A stretch of DNA of 64,000 nt from an uncultured Methylomirabilota bacterium. GTDB lineage: Bacteria; Methylomirabilota; Methylomirabilia; CAVQYV01. The stretch is from NCBI GenBank assembly GCA_963718295.1, contig CAVQYV010000010.1, forward strand, positions 31,679-95,678. Reading direction: 5' to 3'. Positions within the stretch are counted from its first letter, which is position 1. Every line of letters starts with the position of its first letter. Shown piece after piece: positions 1 to 10,355 of the stretch. The notes below the pieces were generated by a model that saw only the letters and a list, made by a program, of their open reading frames with translations, ran no database searches and was not told where the DNA came from. Both the position numbers and the translations under genes were made by a program.

Positions 1-1194
1 TCATCCTCTTTGCCCTGGCGCTGGTGGGAGTCGCTTTATTCCACCGACACACCATGTATGTCGCCCTCATAGGGCTCGGCAGCATCCTGGCATTCAAGTT
101 CCTTTTTGTGGGGGGCTTTACTCTATTGGGACACCTCCTGGGACATGGGCAAGAGGAGGGGGAATGGAGGATCTTGCTGAATCTTCTCGGCCTTCTTTTG
201 GGCTTCGCCATCCTGGCCAGGCACTTCGAAGAGTCCAGGCTGCCCGATAATCTGCCCAACTTCCTGCCTGATGGATGGAAAGGCGGGTTCGTTCTCCTCT
301 TAATGATCGCTGTCCTCTCCTCATTCCTTGACAATATCGCTGCTGCCATGATCGGTGGGGCGATTGCCAGGATCGTATTCAAGGGAAAGATTGCATATCG
401 GCTTCCTGGCCGGGATCGTGGCCGCATCCAACGCAGGAGGGTCCGGCAGCGTGGTGGGGGATACAACGACCACCCTCATGTGGATTGATGGTGTGAGTCC
501 GCTGCAGGTCATTCATGCCTTCGTGGCTGCCATCCCGGCGTTGTTCATCTTCGGCATTGTGGCAGCCAAGCAGCAGGACAAGCTGCAGCCGATCGTGGAG
601 ACCAACGTCGATATCAAGGTCGATTACGGTAAACTGTTCATCGTTTTCATGATCCTGGTCGGGGCGATTGCCACCAACTGGCTTCTTGACTTCCCGGCAG
701 CGGGGGTGTGGATTGGTATTATCCTTGGGGCTTTGATCAGGCCGACACCCTGGAAGGAAATGAAAAACGCCTGGATGGGAACGGTCTTCCTGATGTCCCT
801 GGTCACCTGCGCCTCTCTTATGCCGGTAGAGGATTTACCCCCGGCTTCCTGGGTCACCACCTTCGCGCTCGGCTTCGTCTCGGCGGTCTTTGACAATATC
901 CCGTTGACCAAACTCTGCTTGGTGCAGGGCGGCTACGATTGGGGCATGCTGGCTTATACGGTTGGATTCGGTGGTTCCATGATCTGGTTCGGCTCCTCCG
1001 CCGGCGTAGCCCTGTCCAACCAGTATCCTGAAACCCGCTCCGCTGTAGCTTACGTGAAGAGCGGATGGCATGTCGCGGTGGCTTACATCGTGGGTTTCTT
1101 CATTCTTCTCGGCACTCTGGGTTGGTCTCCGGCTCCGAAGAGATCGGATCTGCAAAAATCAGAAATTCCTGTGGTGCAGATGGTTGAAAGGTAA
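1..1194 (+). pseudogene. NhaD/ArsB (ion transporter superfamily) permease, copy 1; 5'-truncated by the window edge, +1 frameshift near 389
   Basis: Motifs LSSFLDNIA, NAGGSGSVVGDTTT, SAVFDNIPL, GGSMIWFGSSAGVAL split over ORFs 24..488 and 355..1194. Reads AAGGGAAAGATTG where the intact copy has AAGGGAAAATTG. May be a sequencing indel. Confidence 0.8.
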
Positions 1195-1206
1195 GCCATC
1201 CACCGA
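1..1206 (+). repeat. Long direct repeat, near-identical to 8954..10157
   Basis: Alignment by eye shows scattered, mostly third-position substitutions. Similarity ends about 12 nt after the stop codon (GCCATCCACCG). Confidence 0.95.
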
Positions 1207-1280
1207 TGCAGAAAGGGCAGATTCTTTTCTAAGACGGCATGTGGATTCTGGAATCTTTTGAATCCTCGTCACCCGAATCA

Positions 1281-1315
1281 AAAGGGCCGGGAGGAATCCC
1301 CGGCCCTTCCTTTTT
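1281..1315. terminator. Probable bidirectional intrinsic terminator
   Basis: AAGGGCCGGG-loop-CCCGGCCCTT with flanking A/T runs, between convergent genes. Confidence 0.7.
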
Positions 1316-1332
1316 GTTTCTTACCGCTCCGG

Positions 1333-1927
1333 TTATTTCTCAATGATCTTGACCTTCATTTCCACCCGTTCATTGGGATTGTCCCGCTTGTCCCGGGGCT
1401 GGCCGACGATCTTATCCACCGCGTCCATCCCGGAGGTTACCTCGCCGAAAACCGTATATTGCTTATCCAGAAAAGGAGAATCGGCCACGCAGATGAAGAA
1501 CTGGGACCCCGCGCTGTCCGGATCCTGGGACCGGGCCATGGATACGATCCCCCGCTTGTGGGATTTGCTGTTGAATTCAGCCTTCACGTTGTAGCCGGGG
1601 CCGCCCATCCCATGCCGGGACTTATCCGTTTCTTTGGTGTTGGGATCGCCGCCCTGAATCATAAACCCGGGAATGACCCGGTGGAAAATAGTCCCGTCGT
1701 AGAATCCTTTTTTGGCCAGGTCGATGAAGTTGTTCACATGGTTCGGGGCCGCTTCGGGAAAGAACTTCAACTCGATTGTCCCGAACTTGGTTTCGATGGC
1801 CGCTTTCGTTTCCGTCATCTTTCTTAATTTCCTCCTTGGTAAAAGTTTTGGACCGCGTCTCTCCCATGGCCAGAACCGGAATCAGACACAAGAGCAGACT
1901 TAAGAAACCTGTTATTACCCTCTTCAT
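1333..1927 (-). CDS. Cyclophilin-type peptidyl-prolyl isomerase; signal peptide disconnected by a probable indel near 1820
   Basis: FHRVIPGFMIQGGDP, SMAR and AGSQFFI motifs in 1333..1818. The ORF from ATG 1927 (with GGAG RBS) encodes a signal peptide MKRVITGFLSLLLCLIPVLAMG...EEIKK that joins MTETK if one base is removed. Confidence 0.85.
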
Positions 1928-2000
1928 AGCTCCTCCTCGAGAAAATGGATCTTTTCAAACATAAGCGTTCATAGTAAGAGGAAGGGCGCTCCCGGTCAAG

Positions 2001-2052
2001 AAAATTGATGGGGAAATTGATGGAGCTGTCCCATTTTTGTCTGTCCCATTTT
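2001..2052. repeat. Stuttered short repeat (family B, GGGAC-type)
   Basis: AAATTGATGG twice and CTGTCCCATTTT twice; same style as 58012, 60292 and 63960. Confidence 0.55.
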
Positions 2053-2056
2053 GGTC

Positions 2057-2085
2057 TTGACTTGTTACGCAAGATTGAATATAAG
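2057..2085 (+). promoter_or_regulatory. Sigma70-type promoter candidate
   Basis: TTGACT-17 nt-TATAAG directly upstream of the tandem RNA element. Confidence 0.5.
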
Positions 2086-2108
2086 AAAGCCAACTTTATG
2101 AGTTTTGG

Positions 2109-2217
2109 AGCTTTCAATAAGGGTAACAGGGTCCGGAGATAGCCAGCTGTCTCCGGAGGGCAATGAGATCGAACGATAGTCGGGCCGCTATCCCTGAAAA
2201 GGGGTAGCGGCTTTTTT
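2109..2217 (+). ncRNA. Riboswitch candidate copy 1 (nhaA-I/Li+-I-like) with overlapping intrinsic terminator
   Basis: 84 nt identical to 2349..2432. Has GGGT...GTCGGGCCGC ends and the hairpin TCCGGAGATAG/CTGTCTCCGGA. Terminator GCCGCTATCCCT-GAAA-AGGGGTAGCGGC-TTTTTT uses the 3' end of the repeat. Confidence 0.65.
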
Positions 2218-2348
2218 GTTTATCGAACAATGCGTTCCTCTGGGAGTAGAGGTTGACTCTCTGCATGGGAAACCAGTGAAGCCAGGTAAAGAGGAGGTGT
2301 AATCCCCCTTTTCTCTTGGAATGGACAAGTCTCGCTAGTTCCTTGATC

Positions 2349-2460
2349 AGCTTTCAATAAGGGTAACAGGGTCCGGAGATAGCCAGCTGTCTCCGGAGGG
2401 CAATGAGATCGAACGATAGTCGGGCCGCTATCACAAATTTTGGTAGCGGCCTATTTTTTT
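2349..2460 (+). ncRNA. Riboswitch candidate copy 2 with its own terminator
   Basis: Identical 84-nt core; terminator GGCCGCTATCA-loop-TGGTAGCGGCC followed by TATTTTTTT. Confidence 0.65.
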
Positions 2461-2599
2461 GCGATAAAAGGAGACCTTCTCATTCCCATTCATATTCCTT
2501 CTTCCGCGCATCCCTTTCACTTCTATTGCTCGGCGCCTCACAAAGACCCGAGGCGTGAACATCCCTCAACCCAGTTTGTTACCGAAAGGAGGCGTATCC

Positions 2600-3184
2600 A
2601 TGAATTCAAGAAGGAGTATCGTCCAATTCTTCTGCGTTGCCCTTGCCATGCTGTTTCTTGTCATCTCCTGCTCCCGGGGTGAAAAATCAGAAGGCCCGAA
2701 GGAGAAAGGGACCAGTGCGGCCCTCGAACTGACAAGCCCGGCCTTTGTGCTTGGGGCTCCTATGCCTGCCAAGTACACATGCGACGGCGAGAACGTCTCC
2801 CCGCCCTTGAAGTGGACCGGCCTGCCACAGAGCTCCCAGAGCCTCGCGCTGATATGCGAAGATCCGGATGCCCCGGAAGGTTCTCGCGTCCTCTGGCTCG
2901 TCTACAACATTCCTCCTTCGGTGCCGGAACTCCCAGAGGCGAGCCCTGCGATCGGAGTCCTGCCTAACGGGGCCAAACAGGGGAAGAATGATTTCAAGAA
3001 CCTGGGATATACCGGCCCTTGTCCCTCCCCTGGCAAGATTCATCGCTGCGAGTTCAAGCTCTATGCCTTGGATGATATGTCCAAGCTTCCTCCAGGGATA
3101 TCGAAGAAGGAGCTCATAAAGACCATGGAGGGCCATCGTCTTGCCGAGAGACAGTTGATGGTGACCTGTGAGAAAATAAAGTAG
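2600..3184 (+). CDS. YbhB/YbcL (PEBP/Raf-kinase-inhibitor-like) lipoprotein
   Basis: AAGGAGG RBS; lipobox-like LVISC; YTCDGENVSPPLKW, EDPDAP and GYTGPCPSPG motifs. Confidence 0.9.
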   Translation: MNSRRSIVQFFCVALAMLFLVISCSRGEKSEGPKEKGTSAALELTSPAFVLGAPMPAKYTCDGENVSPPLKWTGLPQSSQSLALICEDPDAPEGSRVLWLVYNIPPSVPELPEASPAIGVLPNGAKQGKNDFKNLGYTGPCPSPGKIHRCEFKLYALDDMSKLPPGISKKELIKTMEGHRLAERQLMVTCEKIK

Positions 3185-3368
3185 TCTTAGGGGGGAAGGC
3201 AAGGATAAGCCTCTTGGAGGCGCTCAATCAGAGGGATCTACGGCCGCGAAGAGGTATAAGGTTTCCACCTTAAGCTGTGCGCCCTAAAAGCCGCTCTCAG
3301 CGAACTTTGGAACTCCGTGCCAGTTTGGCCATATGGTGAAGGTGGTGGGGAGAAAGGAGATGATTTTC

Positions 3369-3836
3369 ATGCCTGAGGTTTCCATTGAGTTCTTGATGCC
3401 CATCAAGGTGGCATCCTTAGAAAAGGAAGGACCACGCGAAGAAGTAGGAAAGGCCCTTCAGCAACTTGCCCAAATTCTCAAAGAAAAGAAAGTAAAGATT
3501 GCCGGTGACCCTCTGGCTATGTTCCAGGGTGATCCAAAAGGATGGGATTTCCAAAAGGCACATTATGAAGTCTGTTTTCCCATATCCGGGAGGATCAAGG
3601 GAGAAGGGGAGGTCAAGGGCAAGGAGTTGGCAAAGGGAGCCTTCGCCTGCATTACCCACTCCGGCCCGATTGAAAAATTGCTGGATGCTTATCGGGAAAT
3701 CTTGAAGTGGATCGAGGAAAATGGCTACCAAGTGAGTGGAGCCAGCCGGGAAGTCTACCACAAAGGAATCAGGGAAGCGGAAGGCAGCCTCCAAGAGTGC
3801 CTCATCGAGGTCCAATTCCCCGTAGTAGGAACATAG
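3369..3836 (+). CDS. GyrI-like small-molecule-binding domain protein
   Basis: ACITHSGPIEKLLDAYREILKWIEENGY...REVY pattern; start chosen from the AAGGAG RBS. Confidence 0.85.
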   Translation: MPEVSIEFLMPIKVASLEKEGPREEVGKALQQLAQILKEKKVKIAGDPLAMFQGDPKGWDFQKAHYEVCFPISGRIKGEGEVKGKELAKGAFACITHSGPIEKLLDAYREILKWIEENGYQVSGASREVYHKGIREAEGSLQECLIEVQFPVVGT

Positions 3837-4224
3837 CCGCAGGCAAGGGGTAACCCTTGGGGCGAAGACTTTACGAACTTCTCCCCCAAGCGAAGATGTG
3901 TAGTGCGGAATCTCCACAGGTTCCTGCGGCCCTGGTGGATGAAGATGGTGACAGAAATCCTTGCATTTGAAGGCTCCTCCCGGCCTGCTTTCAGGAGCAA
4001 CAATTCGTCTCAGGGCAGTTTCCGCTGTCCACCGTTGGCATTGGTTCGATTATTTCTCGCGGGCGCTTTCTATTTGGCTCGCTTGCCAGATGGGCAGAAT
4101 GACTCCACAGCTTTTGGAAGCAAGTGACTTAGGCTTACGCACACAGCGGGCGTGTTTAGATACAAGCGGAAAATGGACAAGAGGAGACGGGAGCGGTCGT
4201 TGGGGCTAAGGGAAGAGGGAAGGA

Positions 4225-4371
4225 ATGACGAAGAAGAGGATTGAGAGGAAAAAGCTCACCAGAAACCGGCGGCAGATGTTCGATGAAGAAAAGGCGAAAT
4301 TTGCCAGCCGGGGCAAAAATCCGACGAAGGTTCTGGAAGACGAGGTGAAGCGATCCACTGGGAGGCACTAG
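4225..4371 (+). CDS. Possible 48-aa basic small protein
   Basis: Purine-rich RBS-like context, then MTKKRIERKKLTRNRRQMFDEEKAKFASRGKNPTKVLEDEVKRSTGRH; below the ORF-track cutoff. Confidence 0.3.
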   Translation: MTKKRIERKKLTRNRRQMFDEEKAKFASRGKNPTKVLEDEVKRSTGRH

Positions 4372-4482
4372 ACCAGGACTCATGGAGGGATTGAGAGAGA
4401 CTTCGGAGACAAGAAAGGAGGTTGGTAGTACGGAAAGCACAATTGATGGCCGTAGAAATAACCTAGTTATAGGAGGTGCAAA

Positions 4483-6048
4483 ATGGCTCAAGATAAGATC
4501 AAAGCTCCACCGTTGTCCGATGCGATCCAATCCAGGAAGATAGGAGACATGATCAAATTCTTTGGCCCGGGTGCGATCATGGCCTCTCTGACGATCGGCT
4601 CGGGCGAGACCTTCTTTGCAGCTCGGGGCGGGGCCGTGTTCGGCTACGCCATCATGTGGACCTTCGTATTGGGGTGCTTCTTCAAGTGGGTCCAGTGCTA
4701 CACCGCCATGCGCTACCTGACCCTCACCGGCGAGCATCCCATCGACCGTTGGGCCCATTTCCCCGGCCCCAGAGGGTGGTTCCCCTTCCTGATCGCGGTC
4801 CTCAGCATCATGTGTTTTCCTTTCTGGTTATCCTTCCTGCCCTCCCTCCTGGGAACGCTCTGCAAGTGGATGTTCCATTTCGGGGATCACCTTTGGTGGG
4901 GGACCTTCTGGATCGTTTTCTTCGTCACCTTGACCCTCCTGGGGGGATATAATGCCCTGGAAAAGATCCAGCTGGCGATCATCACCGTGATGCTGGTGGC
5001 GATTCTCTTTGCTGCCGTCTACTTCAAGCCGGATTGGGGGGCAGTCCTCTCCGGGACCTTCATCCCCCGCATTCCCGACTACGCCCCCTGGATCTTTCAG
5101 AAATACCCGGAGGTAGCTGCTCGACCTCCCTGGGTGGAGGCGACCGTCTATATTGGGGCGATCGGCGGAGGGACCTACGATTACATCGGATATATCGGGA
5201 TGCTGAGGGAGAAGGACTGGGGGATGTTGGGACTCCCTAACTTGGCCGAGGTCCAACAGAGGATCCACGAGTTGGAAGAGAAGGGAGACCGAATCCCCCT
5301 CTCCGAGGAGGAGGAGGATGTGAAGACGGCCCTGGCCTGGACCAAGGCCCCCGCCATCGACTCAGTCGTCTCCTTTGCCTCGATCATCATTTTTGCCGCC
5401 GGATTCATGATCGGGGGCGCGCGCCTGCTCCATGCCGAAGAGCTGATTCCCTCCGGGTTGAAGCTCCTGGAATACCAGGCCCAATTTCTCACCCGGATTC
5501 ACGCCTGGTTGCTGCCCCTTTATGATCTGGGCGTCTTCCTGGCGGTCGCGGGAACGGTGTATGGGGCGTATGAGGTCTACACCCGCACCGCTTTCGAGTG
5601 CCTGCGCACCGTCTTCCCCGGACTGCGAAAGATCACCGTGAAGCAGGTCCGCCCCTGGGTCTGCCTCTATGTAGGCGTGGTCGGCATGTTCCTCATGTGG
5701 ATGACCCGGCTTCTGCCCAACGTGAAGCTCATCGATCTGCCCACCCCGGCCGGGATCATCGGAGGGGTCATGACCTGCGGCCTCTGGTGCTTCGCCATGA
5801 TCTGGACCGATCGAAGATATCTGCCCAAGCCCTATCAGATGGGGGGTGGCCTGGTCTTCCTGAATGTGATCGCCGGCATCGGCATGACCACCATGGGCCT
5901 CAAGGCCTGGTGGGATTACGGGGCGGACAAGCTCCACGGGGGCTGGACGGGTTATATCTTCCTGGCCGGCATGGTTGTCCTCTCCATGGTCGTCACGGCG
6001 ATCATCAATAGCTATTACCGGAGGAAAAAAGCGGCAACGACTTCTTGA
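4483..6048 (+). CDS. Nramp-related (APC superfamily) membrane transporter
   Basis: FGPGAIMASLTIGSGE motif, about 11 TM helices, AGGAGGT RBS. Confidence 0.8.
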   Translation: MAQDKIKAPPLSDAIQSRKIGDMIKFFGPGAIMASLTIGSGETFFAARGGAVFGYAIMWTFVLGCFFKWVQCYTAMRYLTLTGEHPIDRWAHFPGPRGWFPFLIAVLSIMCFPFWLSFLPSLLGTLCKWMFHFGDHLWWGTFWIVFFVTLTLLGGYNALEKIQLAIITVMLVAILFAAVYFKPDWGAVLSGTFIPRIPDYAPWIFQKYPEVAARPPWVEATVYIGAIGGGTYDYIGYIGMLREKDWGMLGLPNLAEVQQRIHELEEKGDRIPLSEEEEDVKTALAWTKAPAIDSVVSFASIIIFAAGFMIGGARLLHAEELIPSGLKLLEYQAQFLTRIHAWLLPLYDLGVFLAVAGTVYGAYEVYTRTAFECLRTVFPGLRKITVKQVRPWVCLYVGVVGMFLMWMTRLLPNVKLIDLPTPAGIIGGVMTCGLWCFAMIWTDRRYLPKPYQMGGGLVFLNVIAGIGMTTMGLKAWWDYGADKLHGGWTGYIFLAGMVVLSMVVTAIINSYYRRKKAATTS

Positions 6049-6221: not shown

Positions 6222-8825
6222 ATGAACAGCAATCCCATCAGCCAGGACCCCAAGAACGCGGGCAAGGCCAGGCGAGTGCTGGGCTCCTGGGCCCGTTTCT
6301 CCTATCGCCATCACCGCCTCGTTTTCCTCCTGGTTTTCCTCTCCCTGATCGTCTCCCTCCTGATCGCCAGTCGCCTCCAGATCAAGACCGACATATTTGG
6401 GCTCCTTCCCCAGGACAACGAGAAGGTGAATACCTTCCGCCAGGTCCTTCGGGATTATGGGAGCATGGACTACCTCCTGGTGGCGATCGAGTCGGAGGAG
6501 GGGAGCCCGGCAGATCGATTTGAAGGCTTCTCCGACCTGTTTGCCGAGGAGCTTCGATCCTCCCCCCTCATCGAATATGTGGAATACCGGATCTGGGAGG
6601 AGTCGGAAGATATGCGGCCCCTCCTGGGCAATGGCCTCCTCTACCTGTCTGAGCCCGAGATCGATTCGTTGGCCCATCGGCTCACCGATCAGGGAATTGC
6701 CGAACAGGCACAGCGGATCCAGGCCCTCCTGCTGACTCCAACGGCCCTGCCCATGAAGAGCCTCATAGAGAAGGATCCCTTCAATATCCTTCCCCTGGTC
6801 CAGGATCGCCTGCTCAAACGGGGGATGGATCTGCGCCTCTATCCCTATGATGGATACTACCTCTGCGAGGATCGGTCCATGCTGCTGATGGTTGCCCGTC
6901 CCATCAAGCCGGCGCAGGATCTCCTCTTCAGCAAGAAATTGATGGAGAGGGTGAAGGCGGCGGAGGGAAAAGCCCGCCAGAGGGTGGAGCAGGAGGATGG
7001 CCTCTCCCTGAGCCAGATGAAGGTGAGCTATGGGGGAGGGTATCTGATCGCCCTCAACGATTCCCAGATCATCCAGAGGGATATCCTGCGCAATTTCCTC
7101 ACCTCTTTCTTCGGGGTTCTCTTTCTGTTCCTGCTGGCCTTCCGGACGCTCAAGTCGATCCTGTTTGCGGGCTTGCCTCTGGTGGTGGGCATTTCCTGGA
7201 CCATGGCCTTTGCCGCCGTGGCCGTGGGAGAGCTCAATTACGCCACCAGTGGGTTTTCCGCCCTCCTCATCGGGTTGGCCATCGATCTGAACATCGTCCT
7301 CTACAATCGTTATCTGGAAGAGCGGACGGGAGGCAAAGATGCCCCGTCGTCGGTGGATCTGATGCTCGCTGAAACCGGGCGCTCGGTTTTCATCGGGGCC
7401 ATCACTACGGCCGCCGCCTTCTTTGCCATGATGGTCACCCGGTTTCGCGGTCTGGCCGAATTGGGCCTCCTCACCGGGACCGGGATCCTCTTCTGTCTTT
7501 TGGCCACCTACATCCTGCTCCCCGCCATGTGCGCCTGGGAGGAAAGCCGAAGGAAGGGGGACATCCGATCTCCGCGGATGAGGTCCTTTGGGCTGGGAAG
7601 ATCTTTTGCGGTCCTCTCCCGGGTGCCTCGGGGAATCATCGGGGTCTCCTTGGGGGTGAGCGTCTTCTTGGCCTTCTTTGCCGCCTCCCTCGGCTTCGAT
7701 GAAGACATCAGCAACATCCGTCCCCGGCACAATGAAGCCCTGGATCTCCAGGAGAGGATCTCCGAGAAGTTCGGCCTCTCCTATTATCACTTCGTGGTGA
7801 TCACCGAAAAAAAGACGGTGGAAGAGGCGTTGGAGGCCAATGAAAGGGTGGCTTCGGCTCTGAGATCCTGGAACCGGAAGGAGGGGATCGTCGGGTTCGA
7901 CTCCCTGGAGACCCTTCTTCCCTCGCAAGGCTCCCAGGAGAGGAGGCTGGCCCATATTCGATCCATGCAGGGCCAGGAATTAAACGGAGATCGCATCGCC
8001 AGGAGCTTTCGGAAGGCGTTGCAGGACTCAGGATTGCGACCTGCTGCCTTTGCGGACTACATGAAGAAGTTCCGCGAGTTCCTCTCTCCCTCCCAGAGGA
8101 TCCGCTGGGAGGAGGTGAAGAAATCCTCCCTGGGGCGGATCCTGAGTCGGTACCTGAAGGTGGATGATCAGGGGGTTCGGATAGCCACCTATGTCTATCA
8201 GGAGCGGAGCTCGTGGAAGGCGGGCCCACCTGCCCAGTTGGTGGCAGAGTTGATTTCCCTCGGCTCGGTGAAGGTGTCAGGGGTCAATATCCTCTCCCAG
8301 GAATTGAAGAGCAAGGTGTACCAGGATGCGAAATGGGCTACCCTACTTGCCTTGCTGGGGGTGTGCCTCCTCCTGTATCTGGACTTCAGGAACCTGAAGG
8401 ACACCCTCCTGTCGCTGATTCCCCTCGGTTTTGGTGTCCTCTGGATGTTCGGGCTCATGGATCTCTTCGGAATGAAGCTCAACCTCATGAATATCTTCGC
8501 CGTGATCATGATCCTGGGCATCGGGGTCGATTATGGGGTCCATATCCTGCACCGGTATTATGAGGGAGGAAAATTAGACGCAGCATTGGCCCTCAATCAG
8601 GTAGGAAAAGCGATTTTGATGGCAGCAATGACTACAACCGTCGGCTTCGGCACCATCACCTATTCCGATTATCCCGGCCTCGTCAGCATGGGGATCGCCA
8701 CAGTCATAGGAGTCACAACATGCACAGTCGCCTCTCTTGTTCTCCTCCCGGCGGTCCTCACCCTCTTGGCAAGATCTGGTGATTCCCACTCGGCCGGAGC
8801 ACTCCCCCCAGGTCGAAGATCATAG
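6222..8825 (+). CDS. MMPL/RND-superfamily transporter
   Basis: Two repeats of TM + large loop + 5 TM; GLAID and GIGVDYGVH motifs. Confidence 0.9.
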   Translation: MNSNPISQDPKNAGKARRVLGSWARFSYRHHRLVFLLVFLSLIVSLLIASRLQIKTDIFGLLPQDNEKVNTFRQVLRDYGSMDYLLVAIESEEGSPADRFEGFSDLFAEELRSSPLIEYVEYRIWEESEDMRPLLGNGLLYLSEPEIDSLAHRLTDQGIAEQAQRIQALLLTPTALPMKSLIEKDPFNILPLVQDRLLKRGMDLRLYPYDGYYLCEDRSMLLMVARPIKPAQDLLFSKKLMERVKAAEGKARQRVEQEDGLSLSQMKVSYGGGYLIALNDSQIIQRDILRNFLTSFFGVLFLFLLAFRTLKSILFAGLPLVVGISWTMAFAAVAVGELNYATSGFSALLIGLAIDLNIVLYNRYLEERTGGKDAPSSVDLMLAETGRSVFIGAITTAAAFFAMMVTRFRGLAELGLLTGTGILFCLLATYILLPAMCAWEESRRKGDIRSPRMRSFGLGRSFAVLSRVPRGIIGVSLGVSVFLAFFAASLGFDEDISNIRPRHNEALDLQERISEKFGLSYYHFVVITEKKTVEEALEANERVASALRSWNRKEGIVGFDSLETLLPSQGSQERRLAHIRSMQGQELNGDRIARSFRKALQDSGLRPAAFADYMKKFREFLSPSQRIRWEEVKKSSLGRILSRYLKVDDQGVRIATYVYQERSSWKAGPPAQLVAELISLGSVKVSGVNILSQELKSKVYQDAKWATLLALLGVCLLLYLDFRNLKDTLLSLIPLGFGVLWMFGLMDLFGMKLNLMNIFAVIMILGIGVDYGVHILHRYYEGGKLDAALALNQVGKAILMAAMTTTVGFGTITYSDYPGLVSMGIATVIGVTTCTVASLVLLPAVLTLLARSGDSHSAGALPPGRRS

Positions 8826-8838
8826 GAGGATTACGATT

Positions 8839-10146
8839 TTGTCCCTCAGAATGCTTTTGCTGACAGCCATGCTTTCCCTTCTCCCATCGTTTTGCCTTGC
8901 GGCGGTGGGAATGGTAAATGCTGTTCCGGCCATTTTCGGGATTCGCATCGAGTTCATCCTCTTTGCCCTGACGCTGGTGGGAGTCGCTTTGTTCCACCGA
9001 CACACCATGTATGTCGCCCTCATAGGGCTCGGCAGCATTCTGGCATTCAAGTTCCTTTTTGTGGGGGGCTTTACTCTATTGGGACACCTCCTGGGGCATG
9101 GGCAAGAGGAGGGGGAATGGAGGATCTTGCTGAATCTTCTCGGCCTTCTTTTGGGCTTCGCCATCCTAGCCAGGCACTTCGAAGAGTCCAGGCTGCCCGA
9201 TAACCTGCCCAACTTCCTGCCTGATGGATGGAAAGGCGGGTTCGTACTCCTCTTAATGATCGCTGTCCTCTCCTCATTCCTTGACAATATTGCTGGCGCC
9301 ATGATCGGTGGGACGATTGCCAGGATCGTATTCAAGGGAAAATTGCATATCGGCTTCCTGGCCGGGATCGTGGCCGCATCCAACGCAGGAGGGTCCGGCA
9401 GCGTGGTGGGGGATACAACGACCACCCTCATGTGGATCGATGGTGTGAGTCCGCTGCAGGTCATTCATGCCTTCGTGGCCGCCATCCCGGCGTTGTTCAT
9501 CTTCGGGATTGCGGCAGCCAAGCAGCAGGACAAGCTGCAGCCGATCGTGGAGACCAACGTCGATATCAAGGTCGATTACGGTAAACTGTTCATCGTTTTC
9601 ATGATCCTGGTCGGGGCGATTGCCACCAACTGGCTCCTTGACTTCCCGGCAGCGGGGGTGTGGATTGGTATTATCCTTGGGGCTTTCATCAGGCCGACAC
9701 CCTGGAAGGAAATGAAAAACGCCTGGATGGGAACGGTCTTCCTCATGTCCCTGGTCACCTGCGCCTCTCTTATGCCGGTAGAGGATTTACCCCCGGCTTC
9801 CTGGGTCACTACCTTCGCGCTCGGCTTCGTCTCGGCGGTCTTTGACAATATCCCATTGACCAAACTTTGCTTGGTGCAGGGCGGCTACGATTGGGGCATG
9901 CTCGCTTATACGGTTGGATTCGGTGGTTCCATGATCTGGTTCGGCTCCTCCGCCGGCGTAGCCCTGTCCAACCAGTATCCTGAAACCCGCTCGGCTGTAG
10001 CTTACGTGAAGAGCGGATGGCATGTCGCGGTGGCTTACATCGTGGGTTTCTTCATTCTTCTCGGCACTCTGGGTTGGTCTCCCGCTCCGAAGAGATCGGA
10101 TCTGCAAAAATCAGAAATTCCTGTGGTGCAGATGGTTGAAAGGTGA
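8839..10146 (+). CDS. NhaD/ArsB-type permease, copy 2 (intact)
   Basis: AGGAGGA RBS before TTG 8839; same motifs as copy 1. Confidence 0.85.
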   Translation: MSLRMLLLTAMLSLLPSFCLAAVGMVNAVPAIFGIRIEFILFALTLVGVALFHRHTMYVALIGLGSILAFKFLFVGGFTLLGHLLGHGQEEGEWRILLNLLGLLLGFAILARHFEESRLPDNLPNFLPDGWKGGFVLLLMIAVLSSFLDNIAGAMIGGTIARIVFKGKLHIGFLAGIVAASNAGGSGSVVGDTTTTLMWIDGVSPLQVIHAFVAAIPALFIFGIAAAKQQDKLQPIVETNVDIKVDYGKLFIVFMILVGAIATNWLLDFPAAGVWIGIILGAFIRPTPWKEMKNAWMGTVFLMSLVTCASLMPVEDLPPASWVTTFALGFVSAVFDNIPLTKLCLVQGGYDWGMLAYTVGFGGSMIWFGSSAGVALSNQYPETRSAVAYVKSGWHVAVAYIVGFFILLGTLGWSPAPKRSDLQKSEIPVVQMVER

Positions 10147-10306
10147 GCCATCCACCGTACAAAAGCTGAACTGAGAAGGCCCGGAAAGTGGGGAGAATTT
10201 TGCAGCAAATTGGGGAAAGTTGCCGAAGCACACCGTCCAAGCCCGCCCGATCAAGAAAGCCCGCCTAGAGTCTGCGACAGAATCGGGAAAGACCCTGAAA
10301 TTTCCC

Positions 10307-10355
10307 TTGACAAGGGATGATATCTCAGTTATATTGTTATTAGAATATTCGAATA
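10307..10355 (+). promoter_or_regulatory. Sigma70 promoter with putative ArsR operator
   Basis: TTGACA(10307)-17 nt-TATATT; near-perfect palindrome TATTAGAATATTCGAATA at 10338..10355. Confidence 0.7.

Follow-up and report, generated by a model that had tools for sequence, protein, structure and literature searches.

Upstream of a gene for a YbhB/YbcL (PEBP family) protein in the 64-kb window (the whole stretch of DNA analyzed here, 64,000 nt) lie two identical units that we interpret, with moderate confidence, as serial nhaA-I riboswitches, each overlapping its own terminator and likely acting as two Na+ ON gates for this gene and its GyrI-like neighbor. As a switch it is ordinary: its RNA class and both the terminator-bearing and the tandem arrangement have been published. 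What is new here, judging from the loci compared, is the conserved YbhB-GyrI target of an nhaA-I switch.

The promoter-like site, the switches and the genes behind them lie on the plus strand. A promoter-like site, likely of the sigma-70 type, consists of TTGACT (2057-2062) and TATAAG (2080-2085) separated by 17 nt. The first-pass annotation had proposed a promoter here, and although the site is absent from the list of a consensus scan, which demands a T at the last -10 position, two related loci (L153 and L161) retain the hexamers at the same 17-nt distance while most of the letters between the hexamers differ, which lends the promoter support. Behind it, a repeat finder recovers the two 84-nt units that had been noted, 100% identical and 240 nt apart from start to start (2109-2192 and 2349-2432). 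Each consists of a 20-nt leader and an nhaA-I aptamer (2129-2193 and 2369-2433). In unit 1, P1 lies at 2133-2156 and P2 at 2175-2192; mapping via the wild-type and M4 templates discussed below places the specificity position at U2180, and the equivalent U of unit 2 is at 2420. Terminator 1 (2182-2221) is a hairpin of 14 pairs (2182-2213) followed by a T run, and terminator 2 (2422-2460) a hairpin of 12 pairs (2422-2452), also followed by a T run. The YbhB gene (2600-3184) starts 139 nt after terminator 2 on the same strand, a cis arrangement that is kept in relatives. The spacer between the switches (2222-2348) is present as a single copy in the genome and contains a -35-like hexamer near 2321-2326. 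No real open reading frame was found in it when six frames were checked, tiny membrane-protein genes included. An 80-codon frame (2440-2682) was rejected as a small gene, as it begins within terminator 2 and overlaps YbhB. A derivation of the spacer from the sequence ahead of unit 1 or behind unit 2 was also rejected, with 31, 171 and 326 of 500 shuffles scoring equally.

Both copies match the whole nhaA-I model (RF03057, positions 1-55 of 55) with 40.5 and 41.4 bits against a cut-off of 37, which rules out a new RNA class, and they are the only Rfam family matches at cut-off in the window. Among the three models named in the first-pass annotation (nhaA-I, nhaA-II and DUF1646), a cmscan comparison thus recovered nhaA-I only: the DUF1646 (Na+-I) and nhaA-II (Li+-II) models gave no match at E up to 5 in positions 1-6000, and the DUF1646 motif gave none at cut-off in the full 64 kb. 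A match to BcKCsr2 (28 bits, cut-off 40) was merely the terminator hairpin. The conserved GGGU, AGG and CGGGCC loop and the stems P1 and P2 are all present in both copies. The 11-bp hairpin described earlier is P1, with 11 pairs by RNAfold and 10 if, following the Rfam model, the U of the initial GGGU is kept out of the stem. The unit had also been judged longer than nhaA-I. Against the Rfam model this holds, the aptamer being 10 nt longer with 8 of these inserted in the linker, but it does not make a new variant: the P1-P2 linker is 18 nt here, or 15 nt by the count that gives 14-16 nt in YbhB-linked relatives, and because the extra length is common to all of these (nine relative copies) it marks the YbhB clade and not a new class. 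An extra stem in the long linker, a 3-pair hairpin by RNAfold, was set aside, its letters not being kept in relatives; RNAfold also predicts, in both copies, a weak upstream hairpin able to hide the leading GGG. Across 11 copies from the clade, 98.7% of cells pair in P1 and P2 and 90.1% in the terminator, against 29-56% in slid controls. Covariation in the same 11 copies is thin: P1 has one two-sided change and a score reached by 117 of 500 shuffles, and the terminator two two-sided pairs and a score reached by 10 of 500.

The first-pass annotation had described tandem nhaA-I-type switches with a terminator each in an ON layout, and the Rfam match together with terminators that overlap P2 agrees with this description. 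Both terminator hairpins start in the GGGCCGC of the unit and differ in their inner stems and loops. In both copies the left arm of the terminator is the P2 loop and 3' arm of the aptamer, so that P2 and the terminator are mutually exclusive. Of 200 shuffles, none folded as well as unit and terminator together (z = -4.41 for the first copy and -4.39 for the second); for the unit alone the folding signal is weak (z from -1.1 to -2.1). Predicted energies are -26.1 kcal/mol for terminator 1 versus -3.6 for P2 in the first copy, and -20.8 versus -4.0 in the second, from which we infer that the switch must act during transcription.

We propose that the polymerase likely starts near 2092 and meets gate 1, then gate 2. 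Without ion each terminator would form; with ion, by the mechanism that we carry over from White et al. 2022 (PMC9646797), the aptamer would be stabilized co-transcriptionally, hold P2 long enough to block the terminator and allow read-through. With two successive ON gates, the transcript would extend into the YbhB and GyrI-like genes chiefly at high cytoplasmic Na+, and it likely runs on into the Nramp-like, MMPL and NhaD-like genes. By simple arithmetic, placing two equal independent switches in series would reduce the 10-90% range from 81-fold to 40-fold, raise the midpoint 2.4-fold and square the leak. Tandems with such pseudo-cooperative behavior have been described (PMC9481103). As in those arrangements, the window holds two complete, independent switches of one class in series, with a terminator each, no open reading frame between them and one downstream gene; the kind is identical, and the class subtype and the target are new here. 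One 136-nt contig from an RNA run (X19) lies at 2545-2680, past both terminators; it may be DNA and shows no ends. A second RNA run (X18) yielded no contig for the locus.

The first gene behind the switches is indeed a YbhB/YbcL gene and not a cation antiporter, as had been noted: its product matches PF01161 (E = 6e-36, 124 bits) and TIGR00481 (118 bits versus a cut-off of 57.75), with solved relatives 3n08, 1fux and 1fjj. From its hydrophobic N-terminus and an invariant Cys24 we predict a lipoprotein. Five near-invariant polar residues (two Asp, two His and one Arg) are described for the family, whose function is open (PMC8793217). Four of the five are kept here (D88, D90, H148 and R149) and the first His is replaced by Leu98; Leu occupies this pocket position in 14 of 15 rows of the clade. 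The proteins of the switch-linked clade (the window protein and P0001-P0014) also often carry Cys instead of Tyr after His-Arg.

This clade comprises 14 proteins at 63-96% identity, and a metagenome scan with its alignment yielded 11 loci. In eight of them an nhaA-I element above cut-off and a terminator lie upstream, either directly before YbhB (five loci) or before an intervening GyrI-like gene (three loci). Two of these eight (L156 and L157) are near-identical, leaving seven distinct switch-bearing loci. The other three start too close to the gene to show a switch, one of them (L152) beginning in the T run of terminator 2. Two of the eight switch-bearing loci are tandems. Gene order and upstream neighbors vary among the clade loci and the switch stays; in L161, for instance, the order is switch, CPA2 antiporter, switch, GyrI, YbhB, Nramp. 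The element was found in none of five more distant YbhB loci (about 50% identity), which include the paralogue of this genome; two further partial loci lay outside these five. A literature search in which subscription papers were thinly covered returned no salt role for YbhB/YbcL proteins, no riboswitch-YbhB link and no salt role for GyrI-like proteins. A mention of the link may be hidden in print, because the 2022 table of downstream genes contains 52 'Other' and 171 'Hypothetical' rows that are not itemised.

The history of the tandem can be followed in other strains and loci. Single contigs from three runs of two studies (X1, X2 and X3) reach from the last part of aptamer 1 across terminator 1 and the spacer to the far end of aptamer 2; contigs from X4, X5 and X7 cover other parts of the locus only. 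In L153 both copies are complete and lie 237 nt apart; in L158 a truncated copy precedes a complete one. The spacer and terminator 1 are orthologous across the window, L153 and L158, and on this comparison the tandem is older than the divergence from these two loci. In the strain of X1 the first copy has six changes and the second equals that of the window, and the two copies of L153 differ from each other in leader and linker. The duplication is therefore older than the perfect identity, since contigs from other strains hold the tandem with non-identical copies. Two features shared by both window copies, a G-C pair in P1 and GC after AGG, occur in none of nine relative copies. The exchange of G-C for A-U at 2135/2154 is a two-sided change that is also seen in X1, X2 and X3, and in these strains one upper P1 pair is disrupted by further changes. 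Later homogenisation, most simply by gene conversion, is the likely source of the perfect 84-nt identity, which may instead be a polishing effect of the assembly. The first-pass annotation had taken the differing yet paired terminators as a sign of selection on structure. Compensatory change after a recent duplication does not account for them, because both terminators are old and common to relatives and the aptamers were made alike later.

These comparisons also bear on three readings that would alter the architecture itself. That the duplication is an assembly artefact could be suspected from the perfect identity, from near-identical gene copies elsewhere in the assembly and from a frameshift nearby, but the spanning contigs of X1, X2 and X3 and the two full copies of L153 refute it; barely any credence is left to it, and a polishing effect could at most explain why the two copies match perfectly. 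Highly improbable, too, is the idea that the switches were stranded when an antiporter gene was lost and control YbhB by accident. L161 does hold a CPA2 antiporter between its switches, ahead of GyrI and YbhB, and L153 keeps the end of this antiporter gene just upstream of the promoter where the window has none; yet all eight loci long enough to tell, with YbhB proteins 63-80% identical, keep the switch and terminator before YbhB or GyrI-YbhB. Given this constancy, the suggestion that the switch had become separated from its original target is not supported. It is somewhat more conceivable, though still quite unlikely, that the pair behaves as a single switch, either because a promoter in the spacer serves unit 2 separately or because one copy is a dispensable leftover. 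The -35-like hexamer lies about 42 nt before aptamer 2 (TGGACA here, TTGACA in L153), five of the eight switch-bearing clade loci have one switch (L154, L155, L156, L157 and L159), the two switches of L161 flank an antiporter gene, and terminator 2 is weakened in L153 by a broken T run. Against this, neither the window nor L158 offers a matching -10 hexamer, the consensus scan found no promoter in the spacer, and the window, like the X1, X2 and X3 contigs, has the two aptamers and the two terminators intact. We therefore retain the reading of two gates in series and turn to the ion that would open them.

Several published classes are candidates for comparison. The nhaA-I motif was validated as the Li+-I riboswitch, and a terminator-bearing variant from Desulfobulbus propionicus, turned on by Na+ with a KD of about 1.4 mM, was named Na+-II; a C54U mutant of the latter (M4) answers Li+, Na+ and NH4+ (White et al. 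2022, PMC9646797). Comparison of the wild-type and M4 templates identifies position 54 as the base directly 5' of CGGGCCGC, which is U2180 and U2420 in the window. The core of the window units resembles M4, with the same C-G pair at the base of P1, the same closing pairs of P2 and, at the single position for which an effect on ion choice has been demonstrated, U instead of the C of Na+-II. After AGG the units have G, and every validated aptamer has U there. Na+-II itself shares with our units the nhaA-I fold, the P1-base C-G, the P2 closing pairs, the loop, a terminator over P2, ON logic and a target of unassigned function (YbhB/YbcL and GyrI-like here), but differs in C54, in the U after AGG, in a shorter linker, in not being listed in tandem (Table 3 of PMC9481103) and in its deltaproteobacterial hosts, the present host likely lying outside this group. 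According to PMC9646797, terminator variants are confined to Deltaproteobacteria, where they precede genes without an assigned function.

Li+-I (RF03057) shares the Rfam cut-off that our copies pass, U54 and the invariant loop, and doublets and a terminator-bearing triplet are described for it: PMC9481103 counts six doublets and one triplet, and PMC9646797 reports several tandems, including a triple with one terminator each before nhaD, and assigns no ligand to tandem and terminator-bearing copies. Nearby pairs of nhaA-I had been noted before, and the P2-terminator logic is described for Na+-I (PMC5737381, PMC9337991). Unlike in our locus, where both copies are followed by transcriptional terminators, ribosome-site control is presumed for most Li+-I members (PMC9646797). 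A cation-transporter gene (mostly nhaA) would be expected directly downstream of a Li+-I switch; the gene here matches PF01161, and the NhaD-like gene lies 6.4 kb on. YbhB/YbcL is not among the named gene classes of Supplementary Table I of PMC9646797, whose 'Other' and 'Hypothetical' rows are not itemised, and the P1 base pair of our units is flipped with respect to the Rfam consensus of RF03057. Na+-I (the DUF1646 motif; PMC9337991) likewise has a two-stem aptamer with P2 over the terminator, is a Na+ ON switch and controls osmotic-stress genes, but the window units do not match the DUF1646 motif. The units belong to the nhaA-I family, and we class them neither as Na+-II, since C54 is replaced, nor as typical Li+-I, since they carry terminators and the transporter does not come first. 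In their proposed operation they resemble a Na+-II switch in duplicate. The literature searched contained no later structural or ligand paper on these switches.

Sister switches in other genomes help to narrow the choice. A GTDB pattern scan with a fixed C-G at the P1 base gave 120 loci from about 12 of 64 parts; 82 of them failed a stem filter, and the 38 that passed were scanned with Rfam. All but two of the 38 (L096 and L120, with no Rfam match) were nhaA-I at E up to 0.01, 35 of these 36 lying above cut-off. When the pattern loci were combined with 60 relatives of the same class (8 with a match) and the YbhB loci, we obtained 72 distinct aptamer-like rows, which include repeats and close kin. 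A terminator was found in 54 of the 72 by a heuristic that misses some visible terminators, and among these 54 position 54 is U in 49 and C in 5; because the pattern fixes the P1 base, it gives no comparison of P1 types. Besides deltaproteobacterial records, those named as Nitrospirae, Thermodesulfobacteriota and Omnitrophota contain terminator-type copies. That such copies mostly carry U54 and are found outside Deltaproteobacteria is, on the records scanned, new here. With the same P1 base, sisters precede genes resembling trehalose-6-phosphate synthase (L080, L088) and glucosyl-3-phosphoglycerate synthase (below cut-off; L025, L034, L046, L070), as well as MscS (L079, L097), NhaD (L062), NhaA (L008, L012, L016), Na/Ca exchanger (L015) and CPA2 antiporter (L161) genes; further targets are DUF1646 and trehalose phosphatase. 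Other targets have no obvious connection with salt (TetR, cytochrome c, SPFH, pentapeptide, OmpA, MMPL and FGE-sulfatase domain proteins), and 20 of 44 downstream proteins in one scanned set had no Pfam match.

The genome of the window contains a third copy (L003, G000:C8:321634-321696) with C54 and a terminator (34.2 bits, below cut-off), which precedes DUF5752, TreT, GT20, trehalose phosphatase and Usp genes. A genome of the same family (G001, 170 contigs) showed no switch, and its two YbhB matches lie at contig ends. Genomes of the same class (L005-L020 in G003, G005, G007, G009, G011 and G013) have one to six terminator-type copies each, some starting with AGGU, before NhaA, cytochrome c, TetR, SPFH, MMPL and trehalose phosphatase genes; the AMO/pMMO family is present in the two tested, G007 and G013, and on this basis we read these genomes of 2.5-3 Mb as probable Methylomirabilia. 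Longer arrays also exist. L138:296-702 is a quadruple U54 terminator-type array in which three of the four copies pass the Rfam cut-off and the fourth scores 36.5, and L062:501-794 is a triple U54 terminator-type array before an NhaD-family gene. In a Desulfobacterales record, L112:296-351 and 410-464 (minus strand) form a tandem of C54 nhaA-I copies with one terminator each, a Na+-II-type doublet, which is the form listed as not found in tandem in Table 3 of PMC9481103. In L044, L071 and L078 the switch is followed by 45-55 aa open reading frames with ribosome sites, predicted to encode one-helix membrane proteins; those of L044 and L071 precede CitMHS-family transporters.

By analogy with M4, Na+, Li+ and NH4+ are all probable ligands of the U54 aptamer, and Na+ would be the dominant one inside cells. 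Our best guess for the cellular signal is Na+, because the osmolyte and channel genes behind sister switches are more in keeping with Na+ or salt stress than with Li+ export, and the M4 response is in line with it. The first-pass annotation had allowed for a variant with another ligand; a ligand other than Li+ is indeed expected, but not a new one, since Na+ sensing by terminator-type nhaA-I RNAs is already in the literature (Na+-II). An unlikely alternative keeps the same tandem ON layout and makes the aptamers Li+-preferring, true Li+-I members, with YbhB, the GyrI-like protein and the transporters as a lithium-defence operon. U54 is indeed the base of the validated Li+-I aptamers and published tandems are filed under Li+-I (PMC9646797, PMC9481103), and the same-strand run ends with an NhaD-like gene. 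In the tested RNA that comes closest to ours, however, U54 gave a broad and not a Li+-only response, and the P1 base (C-G) and P2 (A-U) match the Na+-II RNA and not the three Li+-validated RNAs (PMC9646797); moreover, U54 terminator-type sisters control osmolyte and MscS genes. We regard as very unlikely a signal that is neither Na+ nor Li+, most plausibly NH4+, of which the odd targets would be a reflection. M4 did respond to NH4+ (PMC9646797), and 49 of 54 terminator-bearing copies carry U, many of them ahead of non-transport genes, but the same aptamer type also precedes NhaA, NhaD, CPA2, Na/Ca exchanger, DUF1646 and osmolyte genes, and no ammonium transporter or nitrogen-assimilation family was found among the downstream proteins scanned.

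The GyrI-like small-molecule-binding protein (3360-3836) is the constant partner of YbhB behind the switch. A Nramp-family transporter (4483-6048) likely belongs to the same transcription unit; Nramp-like genes also follow in L160-L162, 100 nt behind YbhB in L160 and L161, and here after a gap of 646 nt following GyrI. An MMPL/RND-type membrane protein (6222-8825), possibly in the same unit, has counterparts 60 nt behind GyrI in L154 and directly behind the switch in L013, and the NhaD-like ion-transporter gene (8837-10146) is the last of the run, all on the plus strand. The scan found no strong terminator in this run, and one transcript from the switches through the latter, across the 646-nt gap, is plausible. 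NhaD-like genes had been noted on both sides of the switches; both are present, but they match NhaD models only below cut-offs, and the upstream one (1-1194) is frameshifted by one extra base near 389, a sequencing error or a pseudogene. It was rejected as a target, lying before the promoter and beyond an opposite-strand cyclophilin gene. Further promoter-like sites were seen at 1999-1971 (minus), for the divergent cyclophilin gene, and at 10307-10335 (plus), for an ArsR-family gene after the NhaD-like one. The window stretches with the Nramp-like (4383-6026), MMPL (6264-8759) and NhaD-like (8837-10157) genes have gene-sized counterparts in the assembly, with 95.6% identity on C11, 96.8% on C9 and 97.9% just upstream on C10, respectively, and the run looks as if it had been stocked or kept alike by copying.

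Our findings connect alkali-ion stress with a YbhB/YbcL protein, a member of a family of debated function, and with a GyrI-like protein, via a link that holds across at least seven distinct loci. They also provide a natural test of Li+ versus Na+ sensing, since one genome carries both a C54 single switch and a U54 tandem. A joint reading, which we offer tentatively and hold to be possible rather than probable, combines U54 terminator-type switches as a widespread subtype of their own, C54 and U54 tiers within this genome, and a cation-stress operon. If it is true, the U54 terminator-type would be the natural form of M4, with an ion response broader or weaker than that of Na+-II. The single C54 switch would open the trehalose operon at modest Na+, and the doubled U54 switch would respond at a higher and sharper threshold. 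The genes behind the tandem would then form a new cation-stress operon, in which a YbhB lipoprotein lacking the pocket His is joined by a GyrI-like binder and by transporters of the Nramp-like, MMPL and NhaD-like types.
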